Positions 3,553 to 17,289 of a stretch of 19,564 nucleotides of DNA are shown in pieces. Origin of the DNA: a virus (lineage: Duplodnaviria > Heunggongvirae > Uroviricota > Caudoviricetes); IMG/VR virus record IMGVR_UViG_2874920711_000010. One strand, 5' to 3'. The translations under genes were made by a program, and so were the position numbers. How positions within the stretch are numbered: position 1 is the first letter of the stretch; every line of letters starts with the position of its first letter. Under the pieces are notes generated by a model. The model was not told the DNA's origin, searched no databases, and was given only the letters and a program-made list of their open reading frames with translations.

Positions 3553-3896
3553 TCAGAACGGAATATCATCACCGTAGGGGTCATCGTCTCCCGCTGGTGG
3601 CTGATTACCCTGTGTGCCTGTGGTTTTGCGTCTGTTCCCGCCAGGGCGTGCCGCTCGGGCACTGATTACGCTGTCGGCAATAACCTGATAACCCTGCCGC
3701 GTTTCCCCGTTCTGTCCGGTCCACTGGCTGACCTGCATCGTGCCGGATACGCTGGCAACGTCGCCTGTCCGTCCTGTGCCTGGCTGCATGGCAGCGATAC
3801 CGCCATACGCGCCAGCGTCATCGGTGTGCCCTTGCTGGTCTGTTTTACCTGCGGGTCGTCCACCAACCGTCCGTAAGCTGCTATCTGTGCTGTCAT
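3553..3896 (-). pseudogene. ssb: Single-stranded DNA-binding protein (SSB) gene remnant, frame-disrupted or internally deleted
   Basis: SSB-like N-terminus (MTAQIAAYGRLVDDPQVKQ...) with RBS GGAGAGG in one frame from 3896; SSB-like OB-fold end (SQWTGQNGETRQGYQVIADSV) and acidic tail DDDPYGDDIPF in another frame ending at 3553. The middle of the OB fold appears missing. Confidence 0.5.
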
Positions 3897-4001
3897 GATT
3901 CCACCTCTCCGGTTTTAACGTAAGCGCCCCATCAGCGACGTCTTGTGAAAATTGTCCTGTCTGGCAACAATCGCGCCCATCTATATTGATGGACACGAAC
4001 G

Positions 4002-4676
4002 ATGAATTCCCAGACAACAAAAGATATTCCCTGCTTCCGTTCTTATTTGCCTGATGCCCTGCGTTTAAGATTTGAAGATAAACTGACCATCCGGGCCATC
4101 GCTCAGCGTCTGGGTCTCAGTCATTCCACAATACATACGCTTTTTCAGCGATTTCTTGCATCCGGTATCGCATGGCCATTGCCCGATTCAGTTTCATTCG
4201 CTCAACTTGACGCCATCCTTTATGCCAACAGAAAGAAGGAATTAACAGAGCCTCAAATCAGAGAAGGCTCATGGCGAAAAGAACGGCGAACCAGCTATAG
4301 CCGTGAATTTAAGGTCCGTCTGGCTAAGCAGGCGTTACAGCCTGGGGCTGTTGTTGCCCGGATCGCCAGAGAACACGATATCAATGATAACCTGCTGTTT
4401 AAATGGAAAAGCCAGTACGAGGACGGCTTACTGAGCGATGATGACATACAGGAATGCATGCCTGTCCCGGTGGCACTGACTGATACGCCGGAGCCGACCA
4501 GACCAGTTACAAATCCCTTCTGGCGTAACAAGCATGATGAGCGCCCTGAGGGGGCTCCCGGAAACGTCCCACGGTGCGAGCTGCATCTTAAATCAGGTGT
4601 GGTAAAACTGTTTGACCCTCTCACTCCGGAACTGTTACGGGCGCTAATCCGCGAAATGAAAGGGGGTATCCGATGA
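4002..4676 (+). CDS. IS66-family accessory protein TnpA (HTH), 224 aa
   Basis: First ORF inside the IS66 left end, overlapping tnpB by 4 nt. Confidence 0.7.
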   Translation: MNSQTTKDIPCFRSYLPDALRLRFEDKLTIRAIAQRLGLSHSTIHTLFQRFLASGIAWPLPDSVSFAQLDAILYANRKKELTEPQIREGSWRKERRTSYSREFKVRLAKQALQPGAVVARIAREHDINDNLLFKWKSQYEDGLLSDDDIQECMPVPVALTDTPEPTRPVTNPFWRNKHDERPEGAPGNVPRCELHLKSGVVKLFDPLTPELLRALIREMKGGIR

Positions 4677-5020
4677 TAACGCTGCCGACCGGTACCAGAA
4701 TCTGGATCATCGCTGGCATCACAGATATGCGTTGTGGCTTCAATGGCCTGGCTTCGAAGGTGCAGAACACGCTGAAAGATGACCCGTTCTCCGGGCATAT
4801 CTTCGTCTTCCGGGGCCGCAGTGGCAAAATGGTGAAAATACTGTGGGCCGATCGTGACGGGTTATGCCTGTTCGCCAAACGCCTGGAACGGGGCCGCTTC
4901 GTCTGGCCGGTGACCCGGGAAGGGAAAGTGCACCTGACGCCAGCTCAGTTATCCATGCTACTGGAGGGGATCGCGTGGCAACATCCCAAACGGACAGAAC
5001 GGCCTGGCATCCGGATATAA
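4673..5020 (+). CDS. IS66-family TnpB (Orf2), 115 aa
   Basis: Characteristic small IS66 second ORF (MITLPTG...IWIIAGITDMRCGFNGL), translationally coupled to tnpA. Confidence 0.85.
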   Translation: MITLPTGTRIWIIAGITDMRCGFNGLASKVQNTLKDDPFSGHIFVFRGRSGKMVKILWADRDGLCLFAKRLERGRFVWPVTREGKVHLTPAQLSMLLEGIAWQHPKRTERPGIRI

Positions 5021-5039
5021 CCCGTGATAAAACAAGGGA

Positions 5040-6595
5040 ATGAACAATGAACTCCCCGATGATATTGAGCTGCTTAAAGCCATGTTGCGTAAGCAACAGA
5101 GTCGGCTTCGACAGTATGCCTGTCAGGTCGCGGGCTATGAGCAGGAAATTGAACGGCTGAAAGCGCAACTCGACAGGTTGCGTCGTATGTTGTTCGGCCA
5201 GAGTTCAGAGAAAAAGCGTCATAAGCTTGAAAATCAGATCCGACAGGCAGAAAAACGACTGTCGGAACTGGAAAACCGGCTGAACACAGCCAGAAATCTT
5301 CTGGAAGATGCATCGTCAGTCACAGATTCACCTGACACCAGTCCCCGTCAGAAAACCCGATCGCCAGTAAGCCTGAATCCCCGGGAGACACATCGCCTTC
5401 TGCCTGCTGAAACCAGTTGCCCGGCCTGTGGAGGTGTTCTGAAAGAAATGGGGGAAACAATCTCAGAGCAACTGGATATCATTAATACCGCCTTTAAAGT
5501 TATCGAAACCATACGTCCCAAACTGGCCTGTAGCCGGTGTGATGTCATCGTTCAGGCACCACTTCCCCTAAACCGATCGAACGCGGTTATGCCAGTGCAG
5601 GGTTACTTGCACGGATCCTGGTCAGCAAATATATGGAACATATCCCTTTATATCGCCAGTCAGAAATATACGCGCGACAGGGCGTGGAGCTGAGCCGTAA
5701 TACCATGGTGCGCTGGGTATCAGAAATGGCAGACAAACTCCGTCCTCTGTATATAGCGCTGAATGACTATGTTCTGGAGGCAGGAAAGGTGCACGCAGAT
5801 GACACTCCGGTGAAAGTACTGGCCCCGGGGAACGGAAAGACGAAAACGGGTCGTCTGTGGGTATACGTCAGGGATGATCGTAATGCGGGTTCATCCCTGC
5901 CGGCAGCCGTCTGGTTCGCGTATTCGGCAGATCGCAAAGGAGAACATCCGCAGCTCCACCTGGCAAAGTATCAGGGCGTACTGCAGGCTGATGCCTATGC
6001 AGGTTATAACGTACTGTACGAAACGGGCCGGGTGAAGGAAGCCGGGTGCCTGGCCCACGCCCGCCGAAAAATCCATGACGAGGATGTGCGCCGTCCGACA
6101 GAAATGACTCAGGAAGCGCTCAGACGGATAGCAGAGTTATACGACATAGAAGCGGAGATACGTGGCAGTCCGGCAGAGGAACGGCTTGCAGTCAGAAAAG
6201 CCAGAAGCGTCCAGTTGATGCAGTCGTTGTACGACTGGATACAGTTGCAGAGGAAAACGCTGTCGAAACATGCGGAGATGGCGAAGGCGTTCGACTATAT
6301 CCTGAATCACTGGAATGCGCTGAACGAGTTCTGTCGTGACGGCTGGGTGGAAATAGACAACAACATCGGTGAAAACGCGTTACGATCGGTGGCGGTTGGA
6401 AGAAAAAATTATCTCTTTTTCGGCTCAGACAAGGGAGGAGAAAGTGCGGCGATCATCTACAGTCTGCTGGTCACCTGCAAACAGAACGAAGTGGAGCCGG
6501 AGGACTGGTTGCGCGAAGTGATCGAGAAGCTCAATGACTGGCCGTCGAACCAAGTGCATGAACTGCTGCCCTGGAACTTCTCGTCTGTAAAATAA
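5040..6595 (+). CDS. IS66-family transposase TnpC, split by an apparent frameshift near 5565-5568 (C4 run)
   Basis: ORFs 5040-5693 and 5633-6595 together make a TnpC of about 517 aa; the conserved [29 protein letters not shown] block is only in frame if one base is restored in the C-run. Confidence 0.75.
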
Positions 6596-6640
6596 TCCTT
6601 ACGCTACGTACTTCTCGGGACGCTTACGTATATTAAGTTA

Positions 6641-6799
6641 GGTAGACAGCTTTTTTTACTGTCTACCCACTATCTACCCTCTCTACCTGATTTTACCTGA
6701 ATCAGACAGGGAGGTAGACACGGGGTAGATAGTGGATAAAAGCACTCTACCCCGCTGAAAGCCGCGCCATTACTGGCATGAGGGCCAGCAAGGTAGACA
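6641..6799. repeat. Iteron cluster: octamer GGTAGACA/TGTCTACC at 6641-6648, 6660-6667, 6713-6720, 6792-6799, plus degenerate copies at 6671-6678 and 6724-6731
   Basis: Exact 8-mers in both orientations within about 160 bp of the 367-bp spacer between the two IS66 copies. Confidence 0.6.
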
Positions 6800-6847
6800 A
6801 GGGGAGGCACAACTCAAAACTTTTTAAACGAGGGGGTAAAAATAAAC

Positions 6848-6994
6848 ATGCACACTTCAGGAAAATTTAATAAATCACTCAAAAAACGCAGAGACAGAAC
6901 AGAACCGAAATATCGCGCGTTAGACATGACAGAGCACGCTTTAAAGGTGGCAATCAGAACGATAGACCGCCACGCGGGGGAAGGATACGCGAAG
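6848..6994 (+). CDS. 5-prime fragment (49 codons) of a small gene truncated at the IS66 copy 2 end
   Basis: ORF 6848-7090 starts after a GAGGGGG RBS; from 6995 onward its frame is IS66 sequence. Confidence 0.25.
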
Positions 6995-7025
6995 GTAAGC
7001 GCCCGAGAAGTACGTAGCGTAAGGA

Positions 7026-8580
7026 TTATTTTACAGACGAGAAGTTCCAGGGCAGCAGTTCATGCACTTGGTTCGACGGCCAGTCATTGAGCTTCTCGAT
7101 CACTTCGCGCAACCAGTCCTCCGGCTCCACTTCGTTCTGTTTGCAGGTGACCAGCAGACTGTAGATGATCGCCGCACTTTCTCCTCCCTTGTCTGAGCCG
7201 AAAAAGAGATAATTTTTTCTTCCAACCGCCACCGATCGTAACGCGTTTTCACCGATGTTGTTGTCTATTTCCACCCAGCCGTCACGACAGAACTCGTTCA
7301 GCGCATTCCAGTGATTCAGGATATAGTCGAACGCCTTCGCCATCTCCGCATGTTTCGACAGCGTTTTCCTCTGCAACTGTATCCAGTCGTACAACGACTG
7401 CATCAACTGGACGCTTCTGGCTTTTCTGACTGCAAGCCGTTCCTCTGCCGGACTGCCACGTATCTCCGCTTCTATGTCGTATAACTCTGCTATCCGTCTG
7501 AGCGCTTCCTGAGTCATTTCTGTCGGACGGCGCACATCCTCGTCATGGATTTTTCGGCGGGCGTGGGCCAGGCACCCGGCTTCCTTCACCCGGCCCGTTT
7601 CGTACAGTACGTTATAACCTGCATAGGCATCAGCCTGCAGTACGCCCTGATACTTTGCCAGGTGGAGCTGCGGATGTTCTCCTTTGCGATCTGCCGAATA
7701 CGCGAACCAGACGGCTGCCGGCAGGGATGAACCCGCATTACGATCATCCCTGACGTATACCCACAGACGACCCGTTTTCGTCTTTCCGTTCCCGGGGCCA
7801 GTACTTTCACCGGAGTGTCATCTGCGTGCACCTTTCCTGCCTCCAGAACATAGTCATTCAGCGCTATATACAGAGGACGGAGTTTGTCTGCCATTTCTGA
7901 TACCCAGCGCACCATGGTATTACGGCTCAGCTCCACGCCCTGTCGCGCGTATATTTCTGACTGGCGATATAAAGGGATATGTTCCATATATTTGCTGACC
8001 AGGATCCGTGCAAGTAACCCTGCACTGGCATAACCGCGTTCGATCGGTTTAGGGGAAGTGGTGCCTGAACGATGACATCACACCGGCTACAGGCCAGTTT
8101 GGGACGTATGGTTTCGATAACTTTAAAGGCGGTATTAATGATATCCAGTTGCTCTGAGATTGTTTCCCCCATTTCTTTCAGAACACCTCCACAGGCCGGG
8201 CAACTGGTTTCAGCAGGCAGAAGGCGATGTGTCTCCCGGGGATTCAGGCTTACTGGCGATCGGGTTTTCTGACGGGGACTGGTGTCAGGTGAATCTGTGA
8301 CTGACGATGCATCTTCCAGAAGATTTCTGGCTGTGTTCAGCCGGTTTTCCAGTTCCGACAGTCGTTTTTCTGCCTGTCGGATCTGATTTTCAAGCTTATG
8401 ACGCTTTTTCTCTGAACTCTGGCCGAACAACATACGACGCAACCTGTCGAGTTGCGCTTTCAGCCGTTCAATTTCCTGCTCATAGCCCGCGACCTGACAG
8501 GCATACTGTCGAAGCCGACTCTGTTGCTTACGCAACATGGCTTTAAGCAGCTCAATATCATCGGGGAGTTCATTGTTCAT
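7026..8580 (-). pseudogene. IS66-family transposase TnpC, copy 2, with the shared frameshift plus a second 1-bp deletion (7801-7803)
   Basis: Three ORF pieces (7927-8580, 7586-7987, 7026-7589); copy 2 reads GGCCCCGGG where copy 1 reads GGCCCCGGGG. Confidence 0.7.
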
Positions 8581-8599
8581 TCCCTTGTTTTATCACGGG

Positions 8600-8947
8600 T
8601 TATATCCGGATGCCAGGCCGTTCTGTCCGTTTGGGATGTTGCCACGCGATCCCCTCCAGTAGCATGGATAACTGAGCTGGCGTCAGGTGCACTTTCCCTT
8701 CCCGGGTCACCGGCCAGACGAAGCGGCCCCGTTCCAGGCGTTTGGCGAACAGGCATAACCCGTCACGATCGGCCCACAGTATTTTCACCATTTTGCCACT
8801 GCGGCCCCGGAAGACGAAGATATGCCCGGAGAACGGGTCATCTTTCAGCGTGTTCTGCACCTTCGAAGCCAGGCCATTGAAGCCACAACGCATATCTGTG
8901 ATGCCAGCGATGATCCAGATTCTGGTACCGGTCGGCAGCGTTATCAT
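8600..8947 (-). CDS. IS66-family TnpB, copy 2
   Basis: Protein identical to 4673-5020. Confidence 0.85.
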   Translation of the reverse strand: MITLPTGTRIWIIAGITDMRCGFNGLASKVQNTLKDDPFSGHIFVFRGRSGKMVKILWADRDGLCLFAKRLERGRFVWPVTREGKVHLTPAQLSMLLEGIAWQHPKRTERPGIRI

Positions 8948-9618
8948 CGGATACCCCCTTTCATTTCGCGGATTAGCGCCCGTAACAGTTCCGGAGTGAG
9001 AGGGTCAAACAGTTTTACCACACCTGATTTAAGATGCAGCTCGCACCGTGGGACGTTTCCGGGAGCCCCCTCAGGGCGCTCATCATGCTTGTTACGCCAG
9101 AAGGGATTTGTAACTGGTCTGGTCGGCTCCGGCGTATCAGTCAGTGCCACCGGGACAGGCATGCATTCCTGTATGTCATCATCGCTCAGTAAGCCGTCCT
9201 CGTACTGGCTTTTCCATTTAAACAGCAGGTTATCATTGATATCGTGTTCTCTGGCGATCCGGGCAACAACAGCCCCAGGCTGTAACGCCTGCTTAGCCAG
9301 ACGGACCTTAAATTCACGGCTATAGCTGGTTCGCCGTTCTTTTCGCCATGAGCCTTCTCTGATTTGAGGCTCTGTTAATTCCTTCTTTCTGTTGGCATAA
9401 AGGATGGCGTCAAGTTGAGCGAATGAAACTGAATCGGGCAATGGCCATGCGATACCGGATGCAAGAAATCGCTGAAAAAGCGTATGTATTGTGGAATGAC
9501 TGAGACCCAGACGCTGAGCGATGGCCCGGATGGTCAGTTTATCTTCAAATCTTAAACGCAGGGCATCAGGCAAATAAGAACGGAAGCAGGGAATATCTTT
9601 TGTTGTCTGGGAATTCAT
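8944..9618 (-). CDS. IS66-family TnpA, copy 2
   Basis: Protein identical to 4002-4676. Confidence 0.7.
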   Translation of the reverse strand: MNSQTTKDIPCFRSYLPDALRLRFEDKLTIRAIAQRLGLSHSTIHTLFQRFLASGIAWPLPDSVSFAQLDAILYANRKKELTEPQIREGSWRKERRTSYSREFKVRLAKQALQPGAVVARIAREHDINDNLLFKWKSQYEDGLLSDDDIQECMPVPVALTDTPEPTRPVTNPFWRNKHDERPEGAPGNVPRCELHLKSGVVKLFDPLTPELLRALIREMKGGIR

Positions 9619-9735
9619 CGTTCGTGTCCATCAATATAGATGGGCGCGATTGTTGCCAGACAGGACAATTTTCACAAGACGTCGCTGATGGGGCGCTTAC
9701 TAATATACTGAATTAAATGTATTTTCCTTTACTCA

Positions 9736-9752
9736 GGTAGACAGGGTAGACA
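9736..9752. repeat. Tandem iterons GGTAGACA-G-GGTAGACA directly downstream of the replicase gene
   Basis: Two exact copies of the same octamer found in 6641-6799, lying between the IS66 copy 2 end (9700) and the rep stop (9767). Confidence 0.6.
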
Positions 9753-9766
9753 GCAATTACAAAAAA

Positions 9767-10999
9767 TTATAAAAACGCGTCGCACTCGTCTGTTGTTATT
9801 GCGTTAGTCTGCGTTACCCCCTTAACTTTCCGCGTAATATATTCATGTCCGTAAACTTTTGCGGCAGGCTTCATAGCCTTGCCAAAGTCATTTACGTTTA
9901 GCGGTTTGCTCCTGCCTGCGTATGCCATAAACGCCAGATAGACGCGGTAAAGGCTGTTCCTGGTCGTGTACTTCACTGAATCACCACCGCCACCCATCAT
10001 CAGGCCGCGCGCTTCCTCCAGAAAATTCAGGAACTGGCAAAACTCAATAACCGGATCCGTCTGTTGCTTTATTGCCAGTGCTTCATCACCGTCACGCTGT
10101 TCCAGTAGTAAAGCCCGTGCCTTCTCAGGGTCGGTAAAGTTCGCCAGCAATCGGCGGATAATAACGGGGATTTCAGCCGCAATCTTTTCCGGTAGCTCCC
10201 TGTCTTTTTCGGCCTCACTGACGATATTGTCGAAACGGAAAATCACGCGACGACGTGCCACACCTCCGGCCCGTTCGGTGAATATCATCGGGTTGTTGTC
10301 GGTCGCCAGCACCACCGCCCTGATTACCGCCGTGAAACGCTTTTCATATTTCGGGTTAATTTCCACGGGGTCGCCGCCCGTGATTTTCTTGATGCCCGTT
10401 CCTTCGCCTGTATATTTCGGCTGGTCAGCCAGGACGATAAGACGACTCCCGACAACCTGCGCACGTCCACCAGCATCATCAAGCGATGTCATTTCAGCGC
10501 TTACCGTGTTCTGTTTCCCTGCCAGAAGGCTGGCTATGTGTGTGAATGTACTTTTACCGCTCCCGCCGTCTCCGGTGGCCTCAATAAACATCTGCCAGTC
10601 GTACCGGTTCGCCATAATCATGTAAAGCGCGGCACATATGCGCATCATCTTGCGCGGGTCTTTTCCGGCTGCGTGATCAAGCCATTTATGAAAGTTTGGC
10701 GCGTTGTCGCGGATATTCTCCCCTGGTGCTGGTGGCGTGTACTCAATGCCGTTGTGCGTGGTGATCCAGTTCTCCGGCGTGTGCGGGGAAAATTCCCCCG
10801 TTTTCAGGTTAAGCACACCATTAGTGAACGGTAGCAAATCACTGGACGGCTCGCCCATCGGGTCAGCAGTAACTTTTAACGCTTCAACGGCGTTATTAAT
10901 TGCCCGCTTGCTGAATGTGGCCCGTGTTCTGAATAAACCGCCACCATTTCGCGGCTCAGTTCCATTGTGCTGACCGGACACCATATCCCGCCGCGCCAT
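9767..10999 (-). CDS. Replicase/helicase of the P4 alpha C-terminal type (D5_N-like region plus P-loop NTPase), up to 410 aa
   Basis: LPFTNGVLNLKTGEF motif and Walker A ATGDGGSGKST; true start may be the internal Met at 10858 (after the upstream stop) or the gene may be fused to 10876-11520 by a frameshift. Confidence 0.8.
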   Translation of the reverse strand: MARRDMVSGQHNGTEPRNGGGLFRTRATFSKRAINNAVEALKVTADPMGEPSSDLLPFTNGVLNLKTGEFSPHTPENWITTHNGIEYTPPAPGENIRDNAPNFHKWLDHAAGKDPRKMMRICAALYMIMANRYDWQMFIEATGDGGSGKSTFTHIASLLAGKQNTVSAEMTSLDDAGGRAQVVGSRLIVLADQPKYTGEGTGIKKITGGDPVEINPKYEKRFTAVIRAVVLATDNNPMIFTERAGGVARRRVIFRFDNIVSEAEKDRELPEKIAAEIPVIIRRLLANFTDPEKARALLLEQRDGDEALAIKQQTDPVIEFCQFLNFLEEARGLMMGGGGDSVKYTTRNSLYRVYLAFMAYAGRSKPLNVNDFGKAMKPAAKVYGHEYITRKVKGVTQTNAITTDECDAFL

Positions 11000-11520
11000 A
11001 CGTGAACGATTTCACTTTCCGGATGCACACAAACGCCATCAAATCGACCAGCAAGCATCTGTGCGCGCTCACTGTCTGCCATCTGCGAAAGTTGCGCCTT
11101 TTGCTTTACCGGAAGCTCAATGACCAGACCATCAGAAAGATTCTGGCGTTCACGGGCCAGATATTCGCGCCAGTTCTGCACCTCCTGGCCGTGCATACCC
11201 TCAAGATAAAAATTTGCATCTTGTACACCTGCCGCCGCCAGCTTCTGACCAATCGCCTTGATCATTACAGGCTCAAGATGTCCGGCTCTGTATATGCGTG
11301 CTGATTTTCTGCCATCCGGCACAATTTGCAGATTATCCAGTTCGGATAGCTGCTGCTCTCCAAGCCACACAGGAGGCTCATTATCTCCGGCTGTACGCGC
11401 GTCATGTTCCTGCCACTGTTTCGCGTGTGCCCAGGCATCACTACCCGCAAAGATAATTACCTCTGTGTCTTTGTGTTTTATTCCGCGTGGCTGTTTTTTT
11501 ACGTTCGGTGCCAGTTTCAT
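10876..11520 (-). CDS. Primase-like or replication-associated protein, 214 aa, upstream partner of the replicase
   Basis: ORF overlaps the replicase ORF by 124 nt in another frame; domain not recognised with certainty. Confidence 0.5.
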   Translation of the reverse strand: MKLAPNVKKQPRGIKHKDTEVIIFAGSDAWAHAKQWQEHDARTAGDNEPPVWLGEQQLSELDNLQIVPDGRKSARIYRAGHLEPVMIKAIGQKLAAAGVQDANFYLEGMHGQEVQNWREYLARERQNLSDGLVIELPVKQKAQLSQMADSERAQMLAGRFDGVCVHPESEIVHVWRGGIWCPVSTMELSREMVAVYSEHGPHSASGQLITPLKR

Positions 11521-11816: not shown

Positions 11817-12079
11817 ATGAGCAGAAAAACCCAACGTTACTCTAAAGAGTTCAAAGCCGAAGCTGTCAGAACGGTTCTTGAAAATCAACTTTCGATCAGT
11901 GAAGGCGCTTCCCGATTATCCCTTCCTGAAGGCACTTTAGGACAATGGGTTACCGCCGCCAGAAAAGGACTCGGTACTCCTGGTTCCCGCACGGTGGCTG
12001 AACTGGAATCTGAAATTCTGCAACTGCGTAAGGCGTTAAATGAAGCTCGCCTTGAGCGAGATATATTAAAAAAAGCAAC
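11817..12079 (+). CDS. IS3-family OrfA (HTH), interrupted near its 3-prime end by IS30; the last codons resume at 13302
   Basis: Removing IS30 and one AC copy restores ...DILKKATAYFAQESLKNTR and a continuous -1 frame into OrfB. Confidence 0.7.
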
Positions 12080-13299
12080 TGTAGATTCAATTGGTCAACG
12101 CAACAGTTATGTGAAAACATGGGGTTGCGGAGGTTTTTTGAATGAGACGAACATTTACAGCAGAGGAAAAAGCCTCTGTTTTTGAACTATGGAAGAACGG
12201 AACAGGCTTCAGTGAAATAGCGAATATCCTGGGTTCAAAACCCGGAACGATCTTCACTATGTTAAGGGATACTGGCGGCATAAAACCCCATGAGCGTAAG
12301 CGGGCTGTAGCTCACCTGACACTGTCTGAGCGCGAGGAGATACGAGCTGGTTTGTCAGCCAAAATGAGCATTCGTGCGATAGCTACTGCGCTGAATCGCA
12401 GTCCTTCGACGATCTCACGTGAAGTTCAGCGTAATCGGGCAGACGCTATTACAAAGCTGTTGATGCTAATAACCGAGCCAACAGAATGGCGAAAAGGCCA
12501 AAACCGTGCTTACTGGATCAAAATTTACCATTGCGAAAGCTTGTTCTGGAAAAGCTGGAGATGAAATGGTCTCCAGAGCAAATATCAGGATGGTTAAGGC
12601 GAACAAAACCACGTCAAAAAACGCTGCGAATATCACCTGAGACAATTTATAAAACGCTGTACTTTCGTAGCCGTGAAGCGCTACACCACCTGAATATACA
12701 GCATCTGCGACGGTCGCATAGCCTTCGCCATGGCAGGCGTCATACCCGCAAAGGCGAAAGAGGTACGATTAACATAGTGAACGGAACACCAATTCACGAA
12801 CGTTCCCGAAATATCGATAACAGACGCTCTCTGGGGCATTGGGAGGGCGATTTAGTCTCAGGTACAAAAAACTCTCATATAGCCACACTTGTAGACCGAA
12901 AATCACGTTATACGATCATCCTTAGACTCAGGGGCAAAGATTCTGTCTCAGTAAATCAGGCTCTTACCGACAAATTCCTGAGTTTACCGTCAGAACTCAG
13001 AAAATCACTGACATGGGACAGAGGAATGGAACTGGCCAGACATCTAGAATTTACTGTCAGCACCGGCGTTAAAGTTTACTTCTGCGATCCTCAGAGTCCT
13101 TGGCAGCGGGGAACAAATGAGAACACAAATGGGCTAATTCGGCAGTACTTTCCTAAAAAGACATGTCTTGCCCAATATACTCAACATGAACTAGATCTGG
13201 TTGCTGCTCAGCTAAACAACAGACCGAGAAAGACACTGAAGTTCAAAACACCGAAAGAGATAATTGAAAGGGGTGTTGCATTGACAGATTGAATCTACA
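12080..13299 (+). mobile_element. IS30 (1220 bp here, canonical 1221 bp) nested inside the IS3-family element, with 2-bp target duplication AC
   Basis: Left end TGTAGATTCAATTGGTCAACGCAACAG at 12080, right end ...CAGATTGAATCTACA at 13299, AC at 12078-12079 and 13300-13301. Confidence 0.85.
12142..13292 (+). CDS. insI: IS30 transposase, split by a 1-bp deletion in a G-run at about 12436-12439
   Basis: ORFs 12142-12564 and 12486-13292 together give the roughly 383-aa IS30 transposase; the window reads CGGGCAGACGC where an intact frame requires one more G. Confidence 0.8.
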
Positions 13300-13376
13300 A
13301 CAGCGTATTTTGCACAGGAGTCGCTGAAAAATACGCGTTAATCGAACAATGGCGACAACAATTTCCCATTGAAGCG

Positions 13377-14195
13377 ATGTGTCAGGTATTTGGTGTATCC
13401 AGGAGCGGTTATTACAACTGGGTACAGCATGAACCCTCAGACAGAAAACAAAGTGATGAGCGGCTAAAACTGGAGATTAAGGTGGCCCATATCCGCACTC
13501 GCGAAACATATGGAACCCGGCGGCTCCAGACGGAGCTGGCAGAGAATGGCATCATCGTTGGACGTGACCGACTGGCACGTCTTCGTAAGGAGCTAAGGCT
13601 ACGCTGTAAGCAGAAACGCAAGTTCAGAGCGACTACGAACCCGAACCACAATCTGCCAGTTGCGCCAAATCTGCTGAACCAGACGTTCGCTCCTACAGCA
13701 CCAAATCAGGTCTGGGTGGCGGACCTGACGTATGTTGCCACACAGGAGGGATGGTTGTACCTCGCTGGCATCAAAGATGTTTATACGTGCGAAATTGTCG
13801 GCTACGCCATGGGAGAGCGCATGACAAAAGAGCTGACAGGTAAAGCCCTGTTTATGGCGCTCAGGAGCCAGCGCCCACCTGCCGGGCTAATCCACCACTC
13901 TGATCGAGGTTCACAGTACTGCGCATACGATTACCGGGTCATACAGGAGCAGTTTGGTCTGAAAACATCAATGTCGCGTAAAGGTAACAGTTACGACAAC
14001 GCTCCGATGGAAAGCTTCTGGGGAACGCTGAAAAATGAGAGCCTGAGCCACTATCGTTTTAATAACCGGGATGAAGCCATCTCAGTAATACGGGAATACA
14101 TTGAGATTTTCTACAATCGTCAGCGTCGTCACTCTCGTCTGGGGAATATCTCCCCGGCAGCCTTCAGGGAAAAATATCATCAGATGGCTGCTTAA
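13377..14195 (+). CDS. IS3-family OrfB (DDE transposase catalytic domain)
   Basis: DDE-type motifs (WVADLTY, HHSDRGSQY, YDNAPMESFW); in the intact element it is expressed as an OrfAB fusion by -1 frameshifting, the -1 frame being open from about 13302. Confidence 0.8.
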   Translation: MCQVFGVSRSGYYNWVQHEPSDRKQSDERLKLEIKVAHIRTRETYGTRRLQTELAENGIIVGRDRLARLRKELRLRCKQKRKFRATTNPNHNLPVAPNLLNQTFAPTAPNQVWVADLTYVATQEGWLYLAGIKDVYTCEIVGYAMGERMTKELTGKALFMALRSQRPPAGLIHHSDRGSQYCAYDYRVIQEQFGLKTSMSRKGNSYDNAPMESFWGTLKNESLSHYRFNNRDEAISVIREYIEIFYNRQRRHSRLGNISPAAFREKYHQMAA

Positions 14196-14310
14196 AAAAA
14201 GAACAAATGGTAGTGTCCGCTATTGCCAGTACACCTCATATCCCCGCGCATGAATTTAGTGCGAGTTTTGCCGCTGGCAGTTAAGCCAGGATATTTAAGT
14301 TTCATTATTT

Positions 14311-14544
14311 TTATTCTCCGGTGTGGGGCGCTTTATACTGGTCGTGTAATGTCTCTATTTCCTGCAACTCATTTATTACAGGCTCAAGAAGCGTTATTAA
14401 TGCCGTGACAATCCTTGATTTCTGTTTATCACGCTCATTATCGCCAAATGTTTCCAGACACATTTGCAATATTTCCAACATATTTTCACTGTGAGAAAGT
14501 GCAAGAAATGCGCGGTCTGTTATTTCAATGTAAATATCACGCAT
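14311..14544 (-). CDS. Small hypothetical protein, 77 aa, in an AT-rich pocket between the IS3 and IS110 elements
   Basis: ORF only; no clear RBS, and its upstream region is IS110-family sequence. Confidence 0.3.
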   Translation of the reverse strand: MRDIYIEITDRAFLALSHSENMLEILQMCLETFGDNERDKQKSRIVTALITLLEPVINELQEIETLHDQYKAPHTGE

Positions 14545-14549
14545 AACCC

Positions 14550-16010
14550 CGTTACTTTATTCGTACCCCTTATAATGGGGTGTTAGCCAGCCAGACCCGG
14601 CATGATTACTGCCCCCAGTCGTCCATGATCCGGGGGTGATGTCACCGGGTCTGGTGGGGCGCTGGTAACCGCTAATAGGGTCAGGTCAGGCACTTTTGCC
14701 GGGACCGTCTGTAACGTGGATGCCGGTACCTGCTCCCGTGGTTATCTGGTTAACCCATATACAAGGGAGACAGAATGACCGAATCCAGCGATTACGAATC
14801 CGTCCAGGTCTTTATCGGCGTTGATGTCGGTAAAGATACGCATCACGCTGTTGCCATTAATCGTTCAGGTAAACGCCTGTTCGATAAAGCATTACCCAAC
14901 GACGAAAACAAACTCAGGTCGCTAATATCTGACCTGAAACAACATGGTCAGATACTGCTGGTTGTTGATCAGCCAGCTACCATCGGTGCGTTACCTGTCG
15001 CCGTTGCCCGCTCAGAAGGAGTCCTTGTCGGATATCTCCCTGGACTGGCCATGCACCGCATAGCCGACTTACACGCCGGTGAAGCTAAAACTGATGCTCG
15101 TGACGCTGCCATCATTGCCGAAGCTGCCCGTACCCTGCCTCACGCGCTACGCACGCTGAAACTGGCTGACGAGCAAATCGCCGAACTCTCCATGCTCTGC
15201 GGCTTCGATGATGATCTTGCCGCACAGACAACGCAGGCCAGCAACCGTATCCGCGGCCTTCTGACCCAGATACATCCGGCACTGGAGCGCGTTCTCGGTC
15301 CGAGACTTGAGCACCCGGCGGTACTCGATCTTCTCCAGCGATATCCCTCACCAGAAAAACTCGCTTCGCTGGGTGAGAAGAAGCTGGCAGCCCAGCTCTG
15401 CAAACTTGCGCCTCGTCTGGGTAAACGCCTTGCAGCAGACATAGCTCAGGCACTGGCCGAACAAACCGTCGTCGTTCCCGGCACGAATGCCGCTGCCGTA
15501 GTACTGCCACGTCTGGCACTCCAACTCATCACGCTGCGTAAGCAAAGAGACGAGGTGGCGCTTGAGGTAGAACAGCGAGTTCTTGCTCACCCTCTTTACC
15601 CGGTCCTGACCAGTATGCCCGGAGTCGGTGTCAGGACCGCAGCCAGACTCCTCACCGAGGTCGCCTGCCGCGCCTTCGCCTCTGCCGCACATCTCGCTGC
15701 TTATGCTGGCCTTGCGCCGGTAACTCGGCGATCCGGCTCGTCAATACGCGGTGAGCATCCCTCGCGACGGGGTAATAAAGCTCTCAAACGGGCGTTGTTC
15801 CTGTCGGCCTTCGCCGCGCTCAGGGATCCGCTCTCCAGGGCTTACTACACCCGCAAAATGAGTCAGGGAAAACGACACAATCAGGCGCTTATCGCCCTGG
15901 CGAGACGACGCTGCGACGTTCTGTTCGCCATGATGCGCGACGGGACTTTTTATACCCCGCAGGGGTCATAACATGCTTGACAACTTAATAGGGCACCCCC
16001 ATTTTCACAA
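14550..16010 (+). mobile_element. IS110-family insertion sequence (boundaries approximate)
   Basis: Single 398-aa transposase with a GC-rich leader of about 220 bp; sharp base-composition change near 14545. Confidence 0.6.
14775..15971 (+). CDS. IS110-family transposase, 398 aa
   Basis: N-terminal FIGVDVGKDTHHAV RuvC-like motif; RBS AAGGGAGA upstream. Confidence 0.85.
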   Translation: MTESSDYESVQVFIGVDVGKDTHHAVAINRSGKRLFDKALPNDENKLRSLISDLKQHGQILLVVDQPATIGALPVAVARSEGVLVGYLPGLAMHRIADLHAGEAKTDARDAAIIAEAARTLPHALRTLKLADEQIAELSMLCGFDDDLAAQTTQASNRIRGLLTQIHPALERVLGPRLEHPAVLDLLQRYPSPEKLASLGEKKLAAQLCKLAPRLGKRLAADIAQALAEQTVVVPGTNAAAVVLPRLALQLITLRKQRDEVALEVEQRVLAHPLYPVLTSMPGVGVRTAARLLTEVACRAFASAAHLAAYAGLAPVTRRSGSSIRGEHPSRRGNKALKRALFLSAFAALRDPLSRAYYTRKMSQGKRHNQALIALARRRCDVLFAMMRDGTFYTPQGS

Positions 16011-16366: not shown

Positions 16367-16583
16367 GTGAAAGGCTCCTTTGCTTGATGTAAGGAGTCTC
16401 GCCAGCACGCTGTCAAACATGGTGGCGGGACGTAACAGGGTTGACAGACTGGCAGCAAAGAAACCAGCGAGCGCAAAGGCTCCCCCGTTACGCCCCGCCA
16501 TAATGCGGGTATGGGTAGGTTTACGGACACAAAAAAACCGCATATCGGAATGTAAGCGGCTGTCCGCTTTGCTATTCAGGCTG

Positions 16584-16841: not shown

Positions 16842-17006
16842 GCCGGCAGCCTCCTTGATTGATGGAATGTAACCACCGCCGGAGGTCCTAAGCTCGCTGG
16901 CGGTGGACTGTACAGGGTTAGGACTACTGGCAATCAAGGGAACCAGCCTACCCGAAGGTAGCCCCATACAGCCCACCATTGTATAGGTGTGCGTGTGCGT
17001 CGATAC

Positions 17007-17029
17007 AAAAAAAGACGCGTGCGGCGTCT
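17007..17029 (-). terminator. Intrinsic terminator (minus strand)
   Basis: AAAAAAA followed by AGACGC-GTGCG-GCGTCT; on the minus strand a hairpin plus U7. Confidence 0.55.
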
Positions 17030-17289
17030 GTATCGCCTCGATTGTCAGCGGGGTCCTAATCCCGGCACCCGTTTTATAAGGTGCACGCGAATCATAGCCT
17101 TGGCTGGCAGTGGCGATCAACTGGTTTTTCATACCCGCTTTATTCAGGTTGTGCGAGTCCCGCCCTTGCAGGTGTGTGGTATGATTTAACATAGCTATCT
17201 CGATACTGTTGCTATCGTTGGTGGTTAGACGCCCTGCATGTGTTGCGAGCACTGCGGGGCGTTGCTTAATTTGAGTGACAAAACTCAAA

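Follow-up and report, generated by a model that had tools for sequence, protein, structure and literature searches.

The octamer repeats that lie directly 3' of the pri-rep gene in the window (the whole stretch of 19,564 nucleotides that was analysed) form, with a probability of about 0.9, the replication origin of a phage-inducible chromosomal island (PICI) of the EcCICFT073 type, disabled in this genome. An octamer origin has already been described for islands of this type and is therefore not new; the value of the present case is one of annotation, in that an unlabelled intergenic repeat block, scattered to two places by insertion sequences, is recognisable as a PICI origin.

The island lies between phoQ and roxA, the same site as that occupied by EcCICFT073. 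Next to phoQ, the integrase, AlpA, DUF4222, Pri-Rep, SSB, and homologues of capsid protein E and decoration protein D are encoded on one strand, and the gene order is that of EcCICFT073 (int, alpA, DUF4222, pri-rep, ori, hypothetical gene, ssb, capsid homologue, decoration homologue); several IS elements interrupt the island. In EcCICFT073, deletion of the ori segment significantly cut the number of colonies at 44 C in an assay of pri-rep-driven plasmid maintenance, and did not abolish them (Fillol-Salom et al. 2018, ISME J, PMC6092414). From the published primers, the tested 'ori' was placed at 12001-~12308 of L003, directly past the pri-rep stop codon; primer rep-2c of that study gave no match at up to 3 mismatches, since the primer as printed is one base short, and was placed by reading the sequence. 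The reconstructed intergenic region of the window (278 bp) has 264 positions identical with the 288 bp of CFT073, and the window's origin is assigned by this homology, the functional test having concerned the CFT073 allele. The original prediction, an iteron-type origin directly 3' of a replicase gene, is thus supported by homology to an ori that is needed for pri-rep-driven plasmid maintenance.

Six exact octamers (GGTAGACA/TGTCTACC) were counted over the 19,564 nt, starting at 6641, 6660 (-), 6713, 6792, 9736, and 9745, with none in the window outside 6641-6799 and 9736-9752; the chance expectation is 0.41, and six or more were reached in none of 200 shuffles. On the reconstructed sequence the exact copies span 216 bp, and the first begins 14 bp past the pri-rep stop codon, as it likewise does in contig L090, CFT073, and HM670. 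The predicted count of six exact copies in about 200 bp directly 3' of the replicase gene holds, but the sites number ten in all once those with one or two mismatches are added (TATCTACC at 6671, TCTCTACC at 6680, GGTAGATA at 6724, and ACTCTACC at 6744). The two origin fragments (Table 1) hold 10 of the 11 TCTACC cores of the 19.5-kb window. Put back in order, they consist of a direct pair of sites, a spacer of 40 bp with 20% G+C, and then eight sites in both orientations, the AT-rich spacer being the regional G+C minimum (25% in 40-bp windows). The distal fragment is without one 9-bp unit, AAGGTAGAT, that L090, CFT073, and HM670 have. The AAAACTTTTTAAAC block is found in the corresponding position in CFT073 and four further loci (L041, L054, L068, and L075); Serratia, Morganella, and L085 have blocks like it, as does phage P4 behind the paired iterons of each crr unit. 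One DnaA-box-like match (8/9) is present at 6731-6739 and is confined to the CFT073 subgroup.

Table 1. Positions in the window of the scattered origin, its initiator gene, and the insertion sequences that surround it
Feature	Position	Strand	Description
ISSfl3 copy A	3920-6627	+	2708 bp; left inverted repeat adjoins SSB-gene leader
Target-site duplication, one copy	6628..6635	+	GTATATTA; adjoins right inverted repeat of copy A
Distal origin fragment	6636..6847	+	Inverted relative to pri-rep; last 5 bp of spacer and eight iterons
Distal-fragment iterons, part 1	6641-6648 (<), 6660-6667 (>), 6671-6678 (>), 6680-6687 (>)		
Distal-fragment iterons, part 2	6713-6720 (<), 6724-6731 (<), 6744-6751 (>, degenerate), 6792-6799 (<)		
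Conserved AAAACTTTTTAAAC block	6816..6829	+	After last iteron pair
Gene after origin, first 49 codons	6848..6994	+	Hypothetical protein, PHROG 1231; truncated by ISSfl3 copy B
ISSfl3 (IS66 family) copy B	6995-9700	-	2706 bp; stands between origin fragments
Target-site duplication, other copy	9701..9708	-	TAATATAC, read in rep orientation as GTATATTA; adjoins left inverted repeat of copy B
Rep-proximal origin stub	9709..9766	-	14-bp leader, two direct TGTCTACC iterons, first 27 bp of AT-rich spacer
Stub iterons TGTCTACC	9745-9752 and 9736-9743		9 bp apart
pri-rep	9767..11520	-	SF3 helicase-initiator with C-terminal origin-binding domain; pseudogene here, 1-bp deletion near 10924

The reconstruction consists of the reverse complement of 9709-9766, one GTATATTA, and 6636-6994. 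Its predicted contiguity is borne out by 500 of 5426 complete E. coli genomes (at least 80% of the length; identity up to 97.4%), where the match is always at the boundary between 'DNA primase family protein' and 'hypothetical protein' and occurs once per genome (median), as well as by S. flexneri L004 and by L090, a contig near-identical to the window in which the origin is unsplit. Against L090 the reconstruction shows three differences, namely an indel of 1 bp, a 9-bp iteron unit, and a single C in the end of the IS, and is otherwise exact. The intact origin, as found in L090, CFT073, and HM670, fills the whole 288-bp gap from pri-rep to the next gene. It has, in order, a direct pair of TGTCTACC sites at a distance of 9 bp, the 40-bp spacer (20% G+C), a lone inverted site, a run of three direct sites at intervals of 9-11 bp, an inverted pair, a further direct site, and a final inverted pair that is reduced to a single site in the window. 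The intact islands carry a single iteron cluster, with 11 of the 12 core sites of 11 kb in one 240-bp block. The relatives were taken from IMG/VR (80 loci), the Pri-Rep scan of genome contigs having yielded 3 loci only, and in all 80, with Rep 70-100% identical, TCTACC-core sites lie downstream of the Rep gene. The check on relatives that the original prediction called for found the iteron block present at the rep 3' side in these loci, in L090, and in the 500 genomes. A scan of the intact origin for promoters and terminators gave nothing above shuffles.

The predicted splitting of the origin by an IS66 element into a 367-bp inverted segment and a rep-proximal stub was confirmed, but the event was more involved, comprising two copies of ISSfl3, a loss of 106 bp, and an IS that already lay 359 bp away. 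Copy A matches the NCBIfam models for IS66 TnpA, TnpB, and transposase (TnpC) and is 99.8% identical to annotated ISSfl3; three single-base indels are the sole difference between it and copy B, and tnpC is split by frameshifts in both. The ends of the element read GTAAGCG..., and the 8-bp duplication of GTATATTA, an octamer that occurs once in the unsplit L090 origin, is present; target duplications of the IS66 family are 8 bp long. The inverted piece (6628-6994) is bracketed by the two copies, themselves inverted with respect to each other, and at the left end of copy A the 106 bp found in relatives (L001 9977-10082) are absent. In L090 the copy B junction is found in the gene after the origin, with the IS inside that gene and the origin whole; the older IS junction thus predates the hit on the origin.

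The 367-bp inversion is best explained, judging from these junctions, by supposing that an IS resident 359 bp away underwent inversion-type transposition. ISSfl3 first sat 359 bp downstream, within the next gene and with the origin whole, a state kept in L090, and then transposed into the GTATATTA of the spacer, either in one inversion-type replicative event or by an inverted insertion with subsequent recombination between the copies. Both routes yield the present order of IS-A, GTATATTA, 359-bp fragment, inverted IS-B, TAATATAC, stub, and pri-rep. A duplication that is split, with one half at each inverted copy, is the expected trace of inversion-type intramolecular transposition. Two independent insertions followed by an inversion were rejected, as this scenario needs matching outer flanks and 3912-3919 reads GTTTTAAC where CTTCGCGT would be expected, the missing duplication at the outer flanks being attributable to the 106 bp lost at the older insertion.

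The presence of a replicase gene directly upstream of the origin, also predicted, was confirmed, but the gene itself is frameshifted: pri-rep measures 1754 bp, versus 1755 bp in HM670 and L090, owing to a single indel at gene position 597/598. This frameshift may be an assembly error, since the IS copies also differ by single-base indels only, one of them in a C run whose length in L090 is different again. Exact look-up of the 410-aa frameshift product and of a chimeric 80-aa ORF returned no match, whereas that of the DUF4222 protein led to CP026824.1 and to L090. Pri-Rep (584 aa) is 94.5% identical to the CFT073 protein and matches the Pfam profiles D5_N, DUF5906, and Pox_D5, along with TIGR01613 (P4-family primase C-terminal domain). 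Its helicase core (residues 194-432) matches 7OLA, the SaPI5 PriRep5 (E 1e-14), and residues 488-579 match 1KA8, the origin-binding domain of P4 alpha (E 7e-7). Its helicase and origin-binding domains are homologous to those of alpha, with 35% identity over the aligned part. Residues 1-110 do not align to the primase region of alpha, whose zinc-finger/Toprim part Pri-Rep is without, and only residues 110-200 do align, with alpha 288-386; a single-sequence AlphaFold model of residues 1-115 had a mean pLDDT of 54, too low for a fold search.

Homology to P4 alpha and to the Rep proteins of SaPIs suggests how such an origin could work. By analogy, the C-terminal winged-helix domain of Pri-Rep would bind the octamers on either side of the spacer, and the SF3 helicase body would assemble there, melt the AT-rich spacer, and load itself, so that the excised island could be amplified once a helper phage is induced. 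In the window the replicon is probably non-functional, because the two rep-proximal sites are 2.7 kb from the other eight and in the wrong orientation and pri-rep is frameshifted. The island of the source genome (CP026824.1) is thus a decayed satellite, of which replication or mobilisation is unlikely.

Another reading of the cluster is that it represents the ori or the crr of a P4-type satellite, in which an alpha-type primase-helicase binds type I octamers at two loci. The P4 genome (NC_001609.1) has 11 exact TGTTCACC octamers, all within the annotated ori (9086-9809) and crr (4291-4590); the octamer of the window differs from TGTTCACC at positions 4-5 only; the six sites in the rep-proximal half of the PICI origin are collinear with those of the P4 ori and cover 96 bp from first to last in both; and the island contains a C4-type RNA and Icd-like genes. 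Together with the homologous helicase and origin-binding domains, these results uphold the analogy that had been drawn with the octamers bound by P4 alpha. What does not follow is that the element itself is a P4-type satellite, which is very improbable: the window has one isolated TGTTCACC and no cluster of it, the iterons form a single cluster with no second locus some 4.5 kb off, the initiator does not have the alpha-type domain set, and the island agrees with EcCICFT073 in its genes and its integration site, having capsid and decoration homologues of the lambda type in place of sid, psu, or delta. Membership of the P4 ori/crr class was accordingly rejected, and the element is a PICI. A regulatory reading, in which the repeats are mainly operators through which a regulator, or Pri-Rep as repressor, controls the downstream ssb-capsid operon with no start of replication there, is likewise improbable. 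No terminator-like site follows pri-rep, and the next start codon comes ~50 bp past the last pair of iterons, behind which stands the conserved AAAACTTTTTAAAC block, as such a reading would have it; against this, the coding strand has no promoter-like site (the count is not above shuffles), deletion of the homologous block hurt pri-rep-dependent plasmid maintenance, and the P4 ori and SaPI origins likewise have two sets of sites around an AT spacer. A dual role as origin and operator is conceivable. That the repeats gathered by chance, or belong to a repeat family dispersed over the chromosome that has nothing to do with replication, may be dismissed almost entirely; no support for it was found, and the excess of exact copies over expectation, the occurrence once per genome and always adjoining a primase-family gene, and the near-confinement of the core sites of intact islands to one block refute it. 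An unrelated repeat family was what the original prediction had named as evidence against itself.

A further alternative concerns the rearrangement and not the origin. The 367-bp inversion might not be fixed, being either a choice made during assembly or a state that alternates with its opposite through recombination between the inverted ISSfl3 copies. These copies are 2.7-kb inverted repeats with hardly a difference between them, the flipped state would correspond to a simple ISSfl3 insertion with a direct duplication of TAATATAC, and the arrangement was encountered in no complete E. coli genome of RefSeq. Conversely, record CP026824.1 has exactly the arrangement of the window over 12.3 kb, and an unfixed inversion is on balance unlikely. 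The spacer is cut in either orientation, so the conclusion that the PICI origin is disabled here would be unchanged.

The positions of the sites are nearly fixed among relatives (17, 26, 72, 94, 105, 114, 145, 156, 178, 224, and 233), and the octamer word varies between relatives with all copies changing together. Close relatives use TGTCTACC, CCTCTACC, or TATCTACC; beyond these, Klebsiella 'Ant' (Rep identity 41%) has TGTTCACC, Serratia (53%) has TGTTCAC, and Morganella (52%) has TGTTCAT. A motif of the origin-binding domain goes with the word, NVNDFG with T[GA]TCTACC and NVAEFS or NVADFS with C[CAT]TCTACC, L016 being an exception. This link is not put forward as proof of a specificity code, because the two features lie ~150 bp apart in related loci, where linkage could suffice, and because of L016. 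Taken with the collinearity of the P4 and PICI sites, and with these same reservations, it suggests at even odds that the PICI origin and the P4 ori go back to a single module of six sites (a direct pair of octamers, an AT-rich spacer, an inverted octamer, and a direct triplet, 96 bp from first to last), which would have been retuned to different words (TGTTCACC, TGTTCAT, TGTCTACC, CCTCTACC) together with the origin-binding domain of the initiator. If this were true, octamer words would mark replication-specificity groups in enterobacterial satellites. A layout kept from P4 through the PICIs while the word changes would be useful in predicting which satellites cross-replicate; the observation extends known biology and does not amount to a new kind of system.

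The insertion sequences conform to what is known of ISSfl3 and of IS-mediated inversions, with tnpA-tnpB-tnpC, terminal repeats, and an 8-bp duplication, and there is nothing unusual in the window's copies; they do offer a clean example of stepwise IS-mediated inactivation of a mobile element, since the intermediate survives in another assembly. A classical plasmid iteron origin of the RepA/pi/TrfA kind was rejected, as such origins have 17-22-bp iterons, to which a winged-helix Rep binds that recruits DnaA and DnaB of the host, whereas the window has 8-bp repeats and an initiator that is an SF3 helicase in its own right. SaPI origins lie directly downstream of rep and have 6-12 short iterons in opposite orientations around a central AT-rich region (Qiao et al. 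2022, PMC9371898, and work cited there), and their initiator, also an SF3 helicase, carries a winged-helix domain at its C-terminus (PMC9371898). The PICI origin resembles them in its place, in iterons that flank an AT-rich region, and in its SF3 initiator, whose helicase core matches 7OLA; in contrast, the SaPI iterons are 5-6 nt long and unrelated in sequence, and similarity is detectable in the helicase core only. P4 shares with the PICI the 8-bp iterons, the six-site module, and homologous helicase and C-terminal origin-binding domains, and its crr has the same place as the PICI origin, just 3' of the replicase gene. The PICI differs in using TGTCTACC and not TGTTCACC, in having one cluster versus ori plus crr, in an initiator without the zinc-finger/Toprim region, and in belonging to another satellite family. 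The EcCICFT073 ori shares with the window its place 3' of pri-rep, sites that read TGTCTACC/GGTAGAyA, and an AT-rich spacer with a set of iterons on either side, whereas in the window that spacer is cut by ISSfl3, part of the origin is inverted and 2.7 kb away, a 9-bp unit has been lost, and pri-rep is frameshifted.

The octamer block 3' of the primase-family/SF3 helicase-initiator gene (pri-rep) is supported as an already described origin, that of a phage-inducible chromosomal island (PICI), in a decayed copy. Six exact copies of GGTAGACA or its complement TGTCTACC, the minimum originally claimed, were counted in the 19.5-kb window (at 6641, 6660, 6713, 6792, 9736 and 9745), against a chance expectation of 0.41 and with none of 200 shuffles reaching six. 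Copies with one or two mismatches also occur (TATCTACC at 6671, TCTCTACC at 6680, GGTAGATA at 6724 and ACTCTACC at 6744), and 10 of the window's 11 TCTACC cores fall within two short origin stretches. These stretches were rejoined as the reverse complement of the rep-proximal stub (from 9709), one GTATATTA and the distal fragment (6636-6994), and the reconstruction was searched against complete E. coli genomes. Among 5426 such genomes it was uninterrupted in 500 (matches over at least 80% of its length, identity up to 97.4%), always beneath a 'DNA primase family protein' gene and followed by a hypothetical gene; Shigella flexneri SFBU1023 also carries an IS-free copy. The predicted contiguity is borne out by these genomes and by a near-identical contig (L090), and IS-free relatives retain the iteron block 3' of the primase-family gene. 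That the octamers reflect chance or a dispersed, longer and unrelated repeat family is excluded by the shuffles, by the constant company of the primase-family gene, and by their confinement to one iteron cluster in each intact island.

The window carries an island adjoining phoQ, with the one-strand order integrase, AlpA-like, DUF4222, primase-family gene, repeat block, small hypothetical, SSB-like, and homologues of lambda capsid E and decoration D. Gene order and site (roxA/phoQ) are identical in E. coli HM670 and CFT073, and the island of CFT073, EcCICFT073, serves as the prototype of Gram-negative PICIs; the published gene names agree (c1499, capsid homologue; c1500, decoration homologue; AAN79964, Pri-Rep) (PMC6092414). 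Fillol-Salom et al. placed EcCICFT073 pri-rep-ori on a temperature-sensitive plasmid and found that colonies at 44 C depended on rep and became significantly fewer once ori was deleted (PMC6092414). The tested segment was located in the CFT073 locus (L003) from their primer table (PMC6092414): the forward primer maps to 10198, the delta-ori reverse primer ends at 12000, four bases past the stop codon, and the reverse primer of the full-length construct falls at roughly 12288-12308, the printed primer being one base short and so giving no automatic match. Thus, the tested 'ori' is the entire iteron-bearing gap. The CFT073 gap bears the same octamers, its 288 bp share 264 identical positions with the reconstructed 278-bp gap, and Pri-Rep, with its frame restored, is 94.5% identical to that of CFT073. 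The iteron-type origin predicted 3' of rep is therefore homologous to a segment with a published effect on plasmid maintenance. This need for the homologous block, together with a coding strand devoid of promoter-like sites, makes it unlikely that the block is purely regulatory; it may have a second role in downstream gene expression.

The prediction that IS66 had split this origin also held, as two inverted copies of about 2.7 kb of the IS66-family element ISSfl3 bracket an inverted 367-bp piece and the cut falls within the spacer between iterons. The IS gene products match IS66-family TnpA, TnpB and transposase models, the elements share 99.8% DNA identity with annotated ISSfl3 copies, and three single-base indels are the sole differences between the two copies. 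The present order is IS-A, GTATATTA, fragment, inverted IS-B, TAATATAC and stub; GTATATTA and its reverse complement are a target-site duplication with its halves at two different IS copies. The outer IS flanks disagree (GTTTTAAC vs CTTCGCGT) because 106 bp present in relatives (9977-10082 of comparison locus L001) are absent at the older insertion. This loss lies between the outer junctions 3919/3920 and 6994/6995, and the 3' part of the small post-origin gene is gone; the SSB-like ORF encodes 114 aa, vs 136-140 aa in CFT073 and HM670.

Features of the island and its insertions (window coordinates)
Feature	Position	Strand	Remark
SSB-like ORF	3556-3897		
ISSfl3 copy A	3920-6627	+	
GTATATTA	6628-6635		after right end of copy A
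DnaA-box-like match (TTATCCACT)	6731-6739	-	8/9 match, between iterons
Block AAAACTTTTTAAAC	6816-6829		after last iteron pair
ISSfl3 copy B	6995-9700	-	inverted relative to copy A
Reverse complement of GTATATTA	9701-9708		after left end of copy B
Pri-Rep residues 1-110	11191-11520	-	
IS3-family element	orfA 11817-12185, orfB 13377-14195		interrupted by IS30-family element
IS30-family element	inverted repeats 12068-12105, 13274-13311		inside IS3-family element
IS110-family element	14775-15971		after IS3/IS30
C4 antisense RNA, two copies	16418-16505, 16896-16983	-	
isrK Hfq-binding RNA	17008-17084	-	

In L090 (JAAOUC010000254.1, assembly GCA_049894585.1) the origin is unsplit, with a single GTATATTA and an intact 584-aa pri-rep, and the contig departs from the reconstruction at three points: a base in pri-rep, a 9-bp unit AAGGTAGAT and a single C within the IS end. 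As the junction of the fragment's far end with the ISSfl3 right end is also the same in L090 and the window, L090 preserves the arrangement that immediately preceded the insertion into the origin. ISSfl3 already occupied the next gene, 359 bp from its future target site, and the present order could have followed from a single inversion-type intramolecular transposition or from an inverted insertion and subsequent recombination between ISSfl3 copies; the choice between these routes is one of inference. The 367-bp piece could be variable in orientation or mis-assembled, but the spacer stays cut in either orientation. Over 12,285 bp, NCBI record CP026824.1 (assembly GCA_002949875.1) and the window show 100% identity.

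In numbering that begins at the first base past the stop codon, core sites 17> and 26> precede the spacer and 72<, 93>, 104>, 113>, 144<, 155<, 177> and 223< follow it, with an extra site at 233< in CFT073, HM670 and L090. Adjacent sites are spaced by 9-11 bp, close to one turn of the helix, and G+C content in the region is lowest in the spacer (40 bp, 20% G+C). Downstream TCTACC-core sites were found in 80 of 80 IMG/VR loci with an initiator 70-100% identical (60 distinct sequences); across relatives the spacers diverge while site positions stay nearly fixed, and in some lineages all copies have jointly switched to CCTCTACC or TATCTACC. The same layout recurs with other words in Klebsiella 'vB_KppS-Ant' (TGTTCACC; initiator 41% identical), Serratia aquatilis (TGTTCAC; 53%) and Morganella morganii (TGTTCAT; 52%). 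A fixed layout whose word changes in all copies at once would be expected for sites of one co-evolving protein. One IMG/VR locus, L016, pairs an NVAEFS origin-binding domain with iterons of the T type (TGTCTACC/TATCTACC); it alone breaks the domain-word association and may be a recombinant. Four others (L085-L088), with Rep about 70% identical, have permuted origin modules, with the distal sites and a AAAACTTTTT block first after the stop codon and the two-direct/AT-rich spacer/one-inverted/three-direct module starting about 200 bp downstream. A-run/T-run blocks resembling AAAACTTTTTAAAC also come after paired iterons in the Serratia and Morganella origins and in each of the two crr units of P4. 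The DnaA-box-like match is restricted to the CFT073 subgroup, being absent from the comparison loci L041 and L075, and is thus probably fortuitous.

The replicon in this copy is most likely dead. Two sites remain beside pri-rep and the other eight lie 2.7 kb off, inverted; one 9-bp iteron unit is absent relative to L090; and a 1-bp deletion near 10924, vs HM670 and the otherwise identical L090, turns pri-rep, which occupies 9767-11520 on the minus strand, into ORFs of 214 and 410 aa. The frameshift and other single-base differences may represent real decay or assembly consensus errors, the latter being possible since the IS copies, too, differ by single-base indels only, one in a C run that has a third length in L090. 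Further IS3-, IS30- and IS110-family insertions form a stretch (11817-15971) between DUF4222 and the Icd-like region. The two C4 antisense RNA copies (78.6 and 74.8 bits, 478 bp apart), each with an Icd-like coding stretch downstream, and the isrK RNA (64 bits) suggest that a P1/P4-type immunity module has been duplicated in tandem within a PICI.

Phage P4 is the comparison put forward in the original prediction. Its alpha protein binds type I repeats through its origin-binding domain. Type 1 repeats are annotated at two places in the P4 record, crr (4291-4590, directly 3' of alpha) and ori (9086-9809), which together hold all 11 exact TGTTCACC copies of P4. Read in the alpha direction, the P4 ori cores (20>, 30>, 71<, 95>, 106>, 116>) reproduce the six-site arrangement found in the rep-proximal half of the PICI origin, the first-to-last-site span being 96 bp in both, and the window, CFT073, 'Ant', Serratia, Morganella and P4 align collinearly (mean column identity 68%). 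Pri-Rep and alpha share 35% identity across their helicase and C-terminal regions, and Pri-Rep residues 488-579 match 1KA8, the solved P4 origin-binding domain (E 7e-7). As an account of how the origin works, the P4 analogy is sound on the six-site collinearity and the 1KA8 match; three tested features place the island outside the P4 system, namely a different octamer word, a lone iteron cluster and an initiator that lacks the primase region of alpha. Pri-Rep residues 1-110 gave no Pfam or NCBIfam match and no alignment with the zinc-finger/Toprim primase part of alpha, so that priming by Pri-Rep is putative; this N-terminal domain matches PHROG 2850, a function-unknown family, and its single-sequence structure model was of poor quality. 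The observation is confirmed and its interpretation as an origin supported, and the sole, mildly new points are the pre-insertion state kept in L090 and the collinearity with P4 ori despite differing octamer words. The helicase core matches SaPI5 PriRep5 (7OLA), and in the SaPI model a winged-helix domain binds the iterons that flank an AT-rich region, melting proceeds without ATP, and the helicase loads itself (PMC9371898).
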